A stretch of DNA of 18,078 bases. It comes from Gemmatimonadales bacterium (lineage in GTDB: Bacteria > Gemmatimonadota > Gemmatimonadetes > Gemmatimonadales > GWC2-71-9). Position numbers and translations under genes: made by a program. Below are positions 1,383-8,917 of this stretch, piece by piece. The stretch lies in the NCBI GenBank assembly GCA_039794085.1, contig JBDIWC010000067.1:1-18078 (forward strand), given 5' to 3'. Numbering within the stretch: position 1 is the first letter of the stretch; every line of letters starts with the position of its first letter. Under the pieces are notes generated by a model. That model was not told where the DNA came from and ran no database searches. It saw only the letters and a list, made by a program, of their open reading frames with translations.

Positions 1383-1398
1383 TGGCACTGAATTCGCT
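1383..1398 (+). promoter_or_regulatory. Sigma-54 (-24/-12) promoter
   Basis: TGGCACTGAATTCGCT matches TGGCAC-N5-TTGCW with correct GG/GC spacing and one mismatch. An IHF-like TCAA-N4-TTG lies at 1366-1376 and the palindrome GTGCA-N6-TGCAC at 1279-1294. Confidence 0.6.
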
Positions 1399-1441: not shown

Positions 1442-1545
1442 TCGAACCGCCCGATAAGAGCACACCCGGAGTGATCCGGGGCCGCAAAACTGGAGGTCTC
1501 AACTACCCCTTGGGGTTGAGATAGCTCGGTGCCGAAGGCGATCGA
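1442..1545 (+). ncRNA. GEMM-I cyclic dinucleotide riboswitch, A20 variant (candidate GEMM-Ib, 3',3'-cGAMP-sensing)
   Basis: P2: GC-ACA-CCCGGA-[GUGA GNRA loop]-UCCGGG-GCC-GC, followed by AAA. P3: ACUGGAG-GUCUCAAC...GUUGAGAU-AG-CUCGGU, followed by GCCG. P1: CGCC-CG (1448-1453) pairs with CG-AA-GGCG (1533-1540). This matches the GEMM consensus GGCAAAcc-GNRA-ggGaCGCAAA...GGUCU...GAUAGC...UGCC. Confidence 0.88.
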
Positions 1546-1662
1546 CCCTCGCGGAGCGTGATGAATTCAGTGGCCCACACCGCATGGTGGGTCCCGGGGT
1601 TCGTTGCGCTCCGCTTCGTTTGTCGATCTGGTGATGCTCGAGATTGGGCGTGGGGAGGCAGG

Positions 1663-2076
1663 ATGAGACCCACGCTATTGCTGTCCCTTCTGGCTCTCGT
1701 GGCCGGGTGCGCCGCTGGAACCGAGCCGTCCTCGCCCTCCGTTCCGGCGGGAGCGGTGGCATTCTCACCCTCCCCTGCCTTCCGGGAGTGGTGGCATACC
1801 ACCGAGCAGTGCGCCGGGCTTTCCGGCAGCTTCGCATCGGTTCAGTGGTTCGTGGTGCCCGGGGTGCAGACCTTCGATCCCGGCACGGGGAACCCGGTGG
1901 TGGGAATGTGGTCCCGCGACGGGAGCCGGAGCCGCATCACCCTGGCCGGGGCCTGGCAGCACTCGGAATTCGTGGCGAGGCACGAGATGCTTCACGCCCT
2001 GATCGGCCAGTCGGGACACCCCGCCCTCTATTTCGAGACCCGGTGCGGGCTGACTTGGGGTCTGTGGGAAGTGTGA
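1663..2076 (+). CDS. Small (137 aa) lipoprotein with an HExxH zincin-like motif
   Basis: ATG after GGGAGG. Signal peptide MRPTLLLSLLALVAG|C with lipobox, HEMLH followed by a further His (SGHP), and two extra Cys that could form a disulfide. Confidence 0.8.
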   Translation: MRPTLLLSLLALVAGCAAGTEPSSPSVPAGAVAFSPSPAFREWWHTTEQCAGLSGSFASVQWFVVPGVQTFDPGTGNPVVGMWSRDGSRSRITLAGAWQHSEFVARHEMLHALIGQSGHPALYFETRCGLTWGLWEV

Positions 2077-7357: not shown

Positions 7358-8917
7358 TGTCACACGAAGGCACGAAGTCACGAAGAAGAGAGGGGTTGGA
7401 GACGGGATCGGTGGATCGTGGGTGTTGGAGGGTCGGTCAACCAACAAGCCTTGGGGTGTTTGATCTCACGCGAAGACGCGAAGGCGCGAAGAAGAGAGTG
7501 TCGGGCAATTGGGGGCGCGGGAAGGCATACGGTATGCCAGGAGCATCAAGGGGTGGCTAGGATGAGGGAGGGGGCCCGCGCCAGGGTCCGCGTGTGACAG
7601 GGCAGCGCCGGGTGCCCACCACAACTCGAACGCCACTCATCGGTTCCTCGCAGGTTGGCGTGAAACAGTTCACTGCTGGTGACACGGGGGCTATCCTGTC
7701 CCTACGCGAATGTAACGCCGAACGGTTACAGGGCTCGGCTCGCGCGCTTGGCTCTCGTTTATCGGCTCCGGCCGGGGTGATTCCGGTTACCCGTCATGCA
7801 CGTTCAGGCTTTACAGTCTCACACGAAGACACGAAGGCACGAAGGTGAACGTGAAAGAGTGCCGCAGCAGGCATGCATCATTCTGGTGGAGTGGCCCCTG
7901 GCGCGAGATCATCACGTTCAGGCCCTCCCCTGCCGTCTCGCTCGAAGACACGAGGACGCCCTTCGTGCCTTCGTGTCTTCGTGTGACCACATCGTCCGCG
8001 CAGGTCGAGGCAGGATGTTCCGAGGCGCGTGATGGACCGTACGGTATGCCGAGGACAAAGAACACAGGGGAGGAGGCGGTTCATGCGGCCAGACGACAAT
8101 GCAAGGACCGAACTTGATCCCGAGCAGTTCTCCGCCATCGTGGTGGATGCCGCGTTCCATCTGCATCGGGATCTGGGTCCAGGATTGCTCGAATCGGTCT
8201 ACCAGGTGCTCCTGGCGCGGGTACTGGAAAGGCGTGGACTGCGCGTCGAGCTCCAGAAACCGGTCATTTTTGACTACGACGGGCTTCGCTTCGAGGGAGG
8301 ATTGCGGGTCGACCTCCTGGTGAACGGGAAACTTGTGGTCGAGTTGAAGTCGGTCGAGAAGCTGGCCCCGGTCCACGCCAAGCAGGTACTTACCTACCTC
8401 CGTCTCCTCGGGTTGCCGCTCGGGCTCCTGATCAACTTCGGCGCGGCTACCTTCCGCGAGGGCTGCAAACGCATCGTGAACGGCCCGCAGGCAGTTGCCC
8501 TCTCACAGCTGCGGGTGAATCGGCAGTCACCTCCGGCGGATGTCGGTTCGAGGCAAGTCGGTTGTTTGATCTCACACGAAGACACGAAGACACGAAGACA
8601 CGAAGGGGGTGACCGCCCGCTCGCATCGAAGCGAGATATTCCGAAATGGGCGATGGACTGTGCGGTACGCCGAGCCAAGGACACCGACGAAGAAGAGGCC
8701 ACGTCATGCAGCAAGCCGAAGATACGAGTAACGAAACTCAGTGTCGTTTCGGGGTAAAAGCGGCTATCCAACCTCACGCGAAGACACGAAGGCACGAAGA
8801 TGAATCGGAGGGGCAGGCCCATTTTATAACACGCCAAGCCATTCCCGATCGGATCAAGGCACTCTGAAGGAGATGGCGACGCTCACCCCCTTCGTGCCTT
8901 CGTGCCTTCGTGTGACC
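7358..8917. repeat. Cluster of eight TCA-(CACGAAGN)3-4 octamer elements around the GxxExxY gene
   Basis: Forward copies: 7358-7385, 7464-7491 (CGCGAAG variant), 7817-7844, 7936-7956 (degenerate), 8570-8605 (4 units) and 8772-8799. Reverse copies: 7961-7988 and 8890-8917. Confidence 0.92.
8083..8757 (+). CDS. GxxExxY protein (PDDEXK_3 nuclease-like) with a repeat-derived C-terminal read-through extension
   Basis: AGGAGG RBS at 8071-8076. Motifs LHRDLGPGLLESVY, RVDLLV..KLVVELKSVE, HAKQVLTYLRL and GLLINFG...KRIVN. The conserved domain ends at ~8481. Confidence 0.93.
   Translation: MRPDDNARTELDPEQFSAIVVDAAFHLHRDLGPGLLESVYQVLLARVLERRGLRVELQKPVIFDYDGLRFEGGLRVDLLVNGKLVVELKSVEKLAPVHAKQVLTYLRLLGLPLGLLINFGAATFREGCKRIVNGPQAVALSQLRVNRQSPPADVGSRQVGCLISHEDTKTRRHEGGDRPLASKRDIPKWAMDCAVRRAKDTDEEEATSCSKPKIRVTKLSVVSG

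Follow-up and report, generated by a model that had tools for sequence, protein, structure and literature searches.

A20 GEMM-I riboswitches, an Asn-type iron-sulfur GGDEF enzyme and an RxxQ HD-GYP enzyme point to a possible cGAMP pathway in a little-studied Gemmatimonadales family

Introduction

Which cyclic dinucleotide is read by a c-di-GMP-I RNA that carries A instead of G at position 20, and does its host have enzymes that could make and degrade 3',3'-cGAMP? The question was raised by a locus in a Gemmatimonadales genome (assembly GCA_039794085.1, contig JBDIWC010000067.1), of which a stretch of 18,078 nucleotides, hereafter the window, was analysed. An initial annotation of the window had described a GEMM-I riboswitch with A20 and suggested a cGAMP regulon in the host. 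By itself, the window RNA is another member of a well-known class. Ser/Thr Hypr enzymes account for only 0.17% of GGDEF domains (PMC9140294), and a wider occurrence has been reported for Rxx(Q/N) phosphodiesterases than for the cGAMP synthases known so far (bioRxiv 10.1101/600031). In this study, we examined the aptamer and its leader, the candidate enzymes of the host genome, and the distribution of all three across the order.

Results

Identity and fold of the aptamer

Comparison of the whole window with 4227 Rfam families by cmscan gave a sole match, c-di-GMP-I (RF01051), at 1449-1536 of the + strand. It covers model positions 1-87 and scores 48.3 bits (E 6.5e-07), above the gathering score of 35. 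The covariance-model search proposed in the initial annotation thus found the expected family, and the full GEMM-I fold described there was recovered at every named position, including P1 and its AA bulge. The aptamer occupies 1448..1540 (+). P1 pairs 1448-1453 with 1533-1540 around the bulge at 1535-1536, J1/2 covers 1454-1459, P2 covers 1460-1485 with a GUGA loop at 1471-1474, and P3 covers 1488-1530. In Vc2 numbering, which we take to hold for the positions other than 20, 47 and 92, the sequence places G14 at 1453, G21-C46 at 1460/1485, C22-G45 at 1461/1484, C44-G83 at 1483/1524, A47 at 1486 and C93 at 1533. A20 at 1459 and C92 at 1532 were confirmed from the sequence and the Rfam alignment, and for C92 also from relatives; position 20 reads the alpha nucleobase of the ligand (it is G in c-di-GMP switches), and C92 pairs with the beta guanine (PMC6140456). 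Positions 20, 47 and 92 of GEMM-I are those named in PMC6140456 and PMC5888326.

The fold was well preserved in 23 related aptamers, where 96.7% of 609 cells expected to pair were paired and both sides had changed in 8 of 27 pairs. The covariation score was 0.191, compared with 0.092 after shuffling (0/500) and at most 0.052 for slid partners; the rows are kin, and the comparison is not a probability. This set comprised 23 of 25 rows, one near-duplicate and one row with a very long P3 having been dropped. A20, G21, C22, C44, G45, C46, A47, G83, C92 and C93 were invariant across the 23 rows, which had been selected for A20-G-C-A, a choice that bears on this invariance. The RNA at 1448-1540 is certainly a switch of the GEMM-I fold. 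The claim of an A20 GEMM-I RNA outside Geobacter, in a Gemmatimonadota genome, was borne out, and the class was found family-wide. The names carried by homologous proteins place the host in the Gemmatimonadales.

Concerning the ligand, G20, the mark of c-di-GMP-selective GEMM-I, is absent and replaced by A1459, and A20 with C92, the mark of GEMM-Ib, are both present. The Gs1761-like P2 base (C21, G46), which contributes to selectivity with no agreed requirement, is absent, as the aptamer has G21-C46. P2 of Gs1761 is reported to open with C15-G40 (PMC6274999), and the likeness to Geobacter GEMM-Ib that had been suggested beyond A20 was not upheld. Because its P2 opens with G21-C46, the aptamer resembles the bispecific Vc2 G20A type. 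According to PMC6140456, Vc2 G20A binds c-di-GMP at 53 nM and cGAMP at 120 nM, and Cbe 1-2, a natural A20 RNA, prefers c-di-GMP (30 nM, compared with 463 nM for cGAMP); A20 alone does not guarantee selectivity, as the initial annotation had cautioned. By analogy with these RNAs, the RNA at 1448-1540 very probably binds cGAMP as well as c-di-GMP. The aptamer cannot be classed as a selective GEMM-Ib member; it would be a switch that works like GEMM-Ib in a Hypr-type pathway. c-di-AMP is disfavoured as a ligand because C92 pairs with the beta guanine, and it was rejected on this ground and on the lack of a DAC match in the host genome.

Promoter, leader and controlled gene

A sigma-54-type promoter (TGGCAC-N5-TCGC) was recognised at 1383..1397 (+), with the -24 GG at 1384-1385 and the -12 GC at 1396-1397, from which the RNA would start near 1409. 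The motif lies 45-81 nt upstream in 16/25 aptamers of the class of the window aptamer, against a genome background of 0.004 per 150 nt, and 5/46 other aptamers have it. An RpoN-box protein is encoded on contig C16 of the host genome, and no sigma-70 promoter was found at the leader. Upstream of the promoter, an ORF of 66 aa at 1032-1232 is basic and then acidic and has no Pfam match.

The aptamer lies on the same strand as the controlled gene, 123 nt before its start codon, with a conserved switching strand downstream. Between them, a long spacer hairpin at 1540..1629 (+), with an inner helix at 1551-1616, was obtained from the fold of 1430-1680 (z -3.55); in this model it probably returns the switching strand to the aptamer and is not a terminator. 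An intrinsic terminator at 1595-1623 was considered as the main mechanism and rejected, with one match found against 0.6 expected and the hairpin present in both states. A further reason was that the same-genus orthologue folds an equivalent hairpin from different sequence and without a U run.

The switching strand occupies 1631..1654 (+), as judged from predicted pairing and relatives. In the predicted ligand-free state, 1643-1650 is held by the 5' strand of P1, and 1631-1639 covers A20 by pairing with 1458-1465. After release, 1647-1654 is predicted to pair with the start of the coding region, at CCCACGCT (1669..1676, +), which comprises codons 3-5. The resulting hairpin would loop out the start codon and the ribosome-binding site GGGGAGG (1652..1658, +). 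The strand was present in 17/19 loci analysed, its 3' end always at the ribosome-binding site, and a GGAG-type site followed it immediately in 17/17. Positions 10-15 of the strand pair in 17/17 loci, five of these six being fixed by the choice of anchor, and position 16 is paired in 13/17 with three pair types. Across the 17 loci, the longest helix between strand and codons averaged 6.7 bp, compared with 5.5 bp in synonymous recodings (0/500); these loci are kin, and the figure is not a probability. The second partner in the first codons was seen for both the lipoprotein genes and the unrelated STAS genes.

The direction of the switch was less clear from the energy model. Opening of the ribosome site was costlier in the bound state in 15/17 loci when the window -13..+12 was used, and cheaper in 10/17 with -20..+12; the copy studied here favoured ON with both. 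Accessibility of the Shine-Dalgarno sequence alone, tried as a readout in 19 loci, did not separate bound and free states. We moderately favour a model in which the ligand switches translation of the lipoprotein OFF, and hold to it no more firmly because the energy model is divided between the two windows; switching ON would be the somewhat less likely direction.

The controlled gene (1663..2076, +) encodes a predicted lipoprotein of 137 aa, recognised from 22 homologues and sequence motifs. It has a lipobox with Cys16, and HEMLH-x7-H and Cys50/Cys128 are invariant in 28 sequences. No match was found in Pfam, NCBIfam or PDB; its neighbours in the Atlas are dominated by Gemmatimonadota, and the nearest named clusters are peptidase-like at only 0.81. 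On account of the HEMLH-x7-H motif, a small zinc peptidase is probable. When the lipoprotein was used as query in a related-locus search, the one locus obtained was weak and unrelated. The arrangement of switch, switching strand and lipoprotein was repeated in four other genomes (G002, G018, G019 and G020). In two RNA runs of one study, 17% and 12% of words were found, and a contig from the RNA run of a related strain spans 1359-2090; such contigs carry no strand, start or level, and expression is therefore not claimed. A paralogue of the lipoprotein, 51% identical (G000:C1:54676-55287, L084), has no upstream aptamer match and adjoins a tRNA-like gene. Directly 3' of the lipoprotein gene, a palindromic-type repeat occupies 2101-2295 of the window; it matched the genome in 99 BLAST rows, and many contigs of the RNA runs carry it. 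Stand-alone Uma2 and PDDEXK_3 nuclease-fold genes lie at 264-830 and 8086-8757 of the window, in low-coding, repeat-like DNA.

Other aptamers in the host and its relatives

The host genome (94.7% complete) has three aptamers, namely the window copy, a second A20 copy and one G20 copy. The additional A20 copy, which the initial annotation had suggested looking for, was found on contig C84 before a STAS gene that is followed by an ABC ATPase, ccmB and ccmC, and the G20 copy lies on contig C19 before another predicted lipoprotein. In relatives, c-di-GMP-I matches were found in 32/41 genomes searched, and the 71 matches comprised 42 A20, 28 G20 and one unreadable; these counts take in an unpublished genome (G016), on which the conclusions do not depend alone. 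P2 opened with G21-C46 in 70/71 of these Rfam matches, G20 and A20 alike. In relatives, A20 and G20 switches alike were mostly followed by STAS genes or by genes for secreted, Ig-repeat or pilin-like proteins.

Another type of A20 aptamer, marked by a GAAA loop and G48, was common and often tandem, in pairs or triplets about 155-175 nt apart (L193:5734-6000 in G022; also G043, G077 and G118). In G022 the tandem pair lies ahead of a gene homologous to the unnamed one after the iron-sulfur GGDEF gene of the host. In genome G033 (L047/L126), an A20 switch lies directly before a GGDEF gene of the canonical Asp/Arg kind; no cGAMP synthase was recognised in this genome, and the two may form a feedback link.

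Candidate cGAMP synthase

A Hypr GGDEF enzyme with Ser/Thr, expected if a cGAMP regulon of the known kind were present, was found among 0/9 GGDEF matches of the host genome (94.7% complete). The CD-NTase search likewise gave no SMODS or DncV-like match in this genome, the DncV model being silent in control genomes too, and no DAC-family enzyme was matched in it. Four of the nine GGDEF matches are canonical, with Asp and Arg304, two are receiver-GGDDF proteins with Asp, one lacks the motif, one is a decayed GGEEF domain with Asn on contig C4, and the last is an enzyme on contig C21. Taken literally, the test set in the initial annotation thus weakens the cGAMP reading, whereas the presence of an Asn-type GGDEF enzyme and an HD-GYP enzyme with RxxQ strengthens it.

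Aligned with GacA (6D9M), the C21 enzyme (G000:C21:60527-62212) has Tyr at Tyr304, Asn at Ser348 and an intact GGDEF. The catalytic Asp, Lys and Asn are in place, and the residue before Tyr304 is Thr instead of Asn. Its domains are a 4Fe-4S dicluster, a hydrogenase-like and an FeS domain, linked to the cyclase. It therefore has two of the three Hypr marks, GGDE[F/Y] (as GGDEF) and a residue other than Arg at 304 (Tyr), and Asn at the third; because Ser/Thr is lacking at 348, it was not classed as a Hypr member. For comparison, 94% of predicted diguanylate cyclases have Arg as residue 304, and the route to a cGAMP cyclase has been described as a GGDEF enzyme acquiring R304Y and D348S in either order (both PMC6456294).

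The departure from Asp is a conserved one. Position 348 was Asn in 57, Ser in 3 and Asp in none of 60 distinct orthologue domains, with GGDEF in 60/60; natural Ser orthologues are found in G022, G088 and G101. Position 304 was Tyr or Phe in 19, Val in 1 and Leu in 1 of 21 genome orthologues. Database homologues had Asn348 in 120/120, Phe304 in 98, Tyr304 in 22 and GGDEF in 119/120. Among 217 domains in the best 150 hits of a sequence search, 204 had Asp (184 with Arg304) and 12 had Asn (9 with Tyr/Phe304), and one member of the enzyme clade in the domain tree (P0204) had Asp. To judge from these sequences, Asn at 348 of the iron-sulfur GGDEF enzyme is selected. In a quick tree of 32 rows, the Ser348 forms sit in two separately supported clades. 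The outgroup orthologues have Asn, and the Ser clade of MASE1-GGDEF proteins contains one nested Asn member in the domain tree. Asn and Ser therefore interchange. Descent of the Asn clade from a Ser-type Hypr enzyme was considered and was not seen in the domain tree, in which deep branches are weak and GacA is absent. Asn is also found in decayed GGDEF domains (contig C4 and L132). The C4 domain, which has Arg304 and several decayed motif residues, was rejected as a synthase and taken as degenerate.

The iron-sulfur GGDEF gene was present in 68/73 host-family genomes and 4/77 others of the phylum sample, and it adjoins a sigma-54 activator gene in 19/21 loci. In the host (G000:C21:58597-64751, L083) the order is sigma-54 activator, iron-sulfur GGDEF, an unnamed 230-aa protein and a membrane HD-GYP with RPYR, and the cluster sits downstream of hslV-hslU-argF-gcvT-like genes. 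The gene is apparently shortened in two host-family genomes (L245 in G145, L247 in G071); in G071 (99% complete) GEMM-I and RPYQ matches are absent too, a single instance in which all three parts are missing.

The receiver-GGDDF proteins on C1 and C10 were considered as GSU1937-like synthases and rejected, both having Asp348 where GSU1937 has Ser. This family, with Asp348 and no Arg304 (G000:C1:47435-48439, C10:27264-28259, L137-L140), was shared by the host genome and each of the four sister-family genomes examined. Relatives also have MASE1-GGDEF proteins, a family that carries the full Hypr signature (Tyr304/Ser348/GGDEF), at 9 loci in 8/41 genomes, one locus being cut by a contig end before the motif; it was not found in the host genome. 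Its loci (L072, L075, L076, L078-L080, L082, L173 and L174) fall in all three families of the order. As the MASE1-GGDEF genomes of the third family are nearly without GEMM-I, cGAMP there would need protein receptors.

Candidate cGAMP phosphodiesterase

Among nine HD_5 matches, a receiver-HD-GYP enzyme on contig C68 has RPYQ where PmGH has RPYK, with HD and GYP intact; it therefore carries the PmxA-type mark Rxx(Q/N) with intact HD-GYP motifs. This signature of cGAMP phosphodiesterases occurs in 4.69% of HD-GYP domains, and five of six tested enzymes with it degraded cGAMP, three of them selectively, as reported in bioRxiv 10.1101/600031. By the RxxQ signature, the C68 enzyme would be a candidate cGAMP phosphodiesterase. 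Three host-family orthologues outside the RPYQ pattern also have Q, and the closest sister-family homologues have R.

Distribution across the order

The order survey covered 130 genomes at least 90% complete, 59 of the host family and 59 and 12 of two sister families; it and the phylum and outgroup counts include G086, on which the conclusions do not depend alone. The A20 pattern was found in 44/59 host-family genomes and in 14/59 and 1/12 of the sister families. An Asn/Ser/Thr-type cyclase was found in 54/59, 1/59 and 6/12, respectively, RPYQ in 43/59, 0/59 and 0/12, and all three patterns together in 27/59 host-family genomes. This contrast is one of three kin groups, not of independent counts.

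Outside the host family, the parts were distributed differently. Among the 14/59 sister-family genomes with A20, P2 was paired by eye in 12, one had a Ser-type cyclase match, and about 11 were without such a match. Four of them (98-100% complete) have Asp in all GGDEF domains whose motif is intact, and Q or N was found in 0/10 readable of 22 HD matches. In one of these four (G025), an A20 switch precedes the same STAS gene as the C84 copy of the host. Two outgroup genomes with the Asn enzyme have G20 switches only (5/5). A20 was matched in three outgroup families that lack a match to the iron-sulfur enzyme, one of these A20 matches being G172, which was not relied on alone. A loose motif search over 6 phylum genomes was abandoned, as many matches being obtained in the control. 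A20, cyclase and RxxQ thus coincide inside the host family and not outside it, and because their distributions are uncoupled there, A20 in the order can predate the candidate cGAMP enzymes or be independent of them.

Discussion

Considering all the above results, we propose a plausible model for this locus. A sigma-54 promoter, recognised by its motif, would drive an mRNA leader that folds, by comparison with relatives, into the A20/C92 GEMM-I aptamer. By analogy with other A20 RNAs, its pocket would accommodate 3',3'-cGAMP and also, with A20 protonated, c-di-GMP. Without ligand, the switching strand would be held by the 5' side of P1; ligand would lock P1 and free the strand near the ribosome-binding site, where pairing with codons 3-5 would close the ribosome site and AUG in a hairpin and turn translation off. 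The part of writer would fall to the iron-sulfur-sensing GGDEF enzyme, which combines Tyr304 and GGDEF with Asn in place of Ser348, and that of eraser to the receiver-HD-GYP enzyme with RxxQ. The readers would be the A20 switches, in the window and before the STAS-ccm genes, beside G20 switches for c-di-GMP.

That A20 occurs twice, with an Asn/Tyr cyclase and an RPYQ enzyme, amounts to three changes at known base-reading positions in one genome, which supports reading of cGAMP, and the coexistence of G20 and A20 copies was counted in the same direction. We slightly favour the view that cGAMP is read by the RNA, either by itself or along with c-di-GMP. From these sequence signatures, cGAMP is rather likely to be present in cells of the host family and unlikely in the sister family, the host family being favoured because of the matched enzyme changes, the interchange of Asn and Ser, and the true Hypr signatures in close relatives. 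That the 3',3'-cGAMP pathway of the host family is complete, comprising a redox-sensing Asn cyclase, an RxxQ phosphodiesterase and sigma-54-driven A20 riboswitches, can be put forward as a tentative proposal that falls somewhat short of probable.

The strongest competitor, which we regard as a real possibility though not the one we would expect, is that the RNA is a c-di-GMP switch in which A20 merely lowers affinity, so that copies with A20 and with G20 would respond at different levels of c-di-GMP; the Asn cyclase would then be either a receptor or a diguanylate cyclase of weak activity, and RxxQ would be incidental or serve another source of cGAMP. The binding data for Vc2 G20A and Cbe 1-2 (PMC6140456) and the G21-C46 pocket of the aptamer agree with it, as do the four canonical Asp/Arg diguanylate cyclases of the host, the A20 switches of near-complete, all-Asp sister-family genomes (one before the same STAS gene), and the likeness of G20 and A20 targets in relatives, which are surface and secreted proteins. 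However, it leaves unexplained why a cyclase that is conserved and looks intact should avoid Asp and Arg at the two positions that read guanine, why the Asn cyclase has toggled twice to Ser, and why this cyclase shares its family range with an HD-GYP orthologue that has changed from K/R to Q.

It is improbable that the product of the Asn enzyme is a different dinucleotide (c-di-AMP for the most part, or a mixture) that is not the main ligand of the A20 RNA, and that the enzyme is unrelated to the switch. On chemical grounds Asn could pair adenine from both sides, the host genome gave no DAC-family match, and enzyme and A20 switch are uncoupled outside the host family; yet the invariant C92 wants guanine, RxxQ marks the turnover of cGAMP and not of c-di-AMP (bioRxiv 10.1101/600031), and Ser-type Hypr enzymes make mainly cGAMP (PMC9140294). 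Least likely by far is that the window aptamer is a decayed or silent duplicate, a reading suggested by its modest score of 48.3 bits and by one P3 pair that has lost a base. The one-base gap in P3 is common to 11/23 rows, though, the switch recurs with its switching strand and lipoprotein in G002, G018, G019 and G020, and the promoter is intact.

Returning to the cGAMP reading, these results point to a cGAMP pathway in a little-studied Gemmatimonadales family. If it were true, a widespread uncultured lineage would gain a second messenger tied to redox sensing, and Asn/Tyr(Phe)/GGDEF would be a second signature of cGAMP synthases, marking a hitherto undescribed type of writer. Should Asn function as Ser does, the search rule for cGAMP synthases would widen, and a missing enzyme would be supplied for some A20 switches and for RxxQ enzymes in genomes scored as lacking one. 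Within the literature searched, to which the founding PNAS and Cell Reports papers did not belong, no cGAMP signalling was reported in Gemmatimonadota; queries of Gemmatimonad- with cGAMP and GGDEF gave no paper, and with riboswitch and c-di-GMP only unrelated ones. The same searches found no report of Asn at 348 tested for activity, and neither Gemmatimonad- nor S347N appears in the supplements of PMC6456294; the supplements of the founding papers may list such genomes or Asn variants already.

The window RNA and its candidate partners can be compared with several known systems. With Vc2 of Vibrio cholerae (RF01051) the aptamer shares the whole fold, G21-C46, C22-G45, C44-G83, A47 and C92, and with A20 its pocket is the same as in Vc2 G20A, to which both ligands bind (PMC6140456). 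Unlike Vc2, it has a natural and conserved A20, a GYRA loop with a UCUC/GAGA partner in P3, a sigma-54 promoter, and, at the ribosome site, a switching strand that has two partners. The Geobacter GEMM-Ib RNAs (Gs1761, Gm0970 and pilM) share A20 and C92, occur in several copies beside G20 copies, and include one copy before cytochrome c maturation genes. They differ low in P2, which opens with C-G in Gs1761 and has U.G in pilM, whereas the aptamer has G-C and C-G. In addition, pilM is a transcriptional ON switch, whereas the window switch looks translational, and in contrast to the Geobacter hosts, no Ser/Thr synthase was found in the host genome. Cbe 1-2 of Clostridium beijerinckii, likened here by description and not by sequence, is likewise a natural A20 GEMM-I RNA outside Geobacter; its measured preference is for c-di-GMP, whereas the host of the window RNA has candidate cGAMP enzymes.

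Among the enzymes, the C21 protein shares Tyr304, GGDEF and the catalytic Asp, Lys and Asn with the Hypr GGDEF enzymes (GacA/GSU1658, Bd0367 and GSU1937). It differs from them in having Asn instead of Ser/Thr, Thr instead of Asn before Tyr304, and a 4Fe-4S dicluster, hydrogenase-like and FeS input module in place of a receiver or GAF domain. The MASE1-GGDEF proteins of relatives share the full Tyr/Ser/GGDEF signature with the Hypr enzymes, and the C21 clade does not group with this Ser-type clade in the domain tree. With the PmxA-type phosphodiesterases, the C68 enzyme shares RPYQ at the RxxK position of PmGH and intact HD and GYP motifs, by an alignment to PmGH that left PmxA out; unlike PmxA, it is a receiver-HD-GYP enzyme with no membrane or Cache domain.
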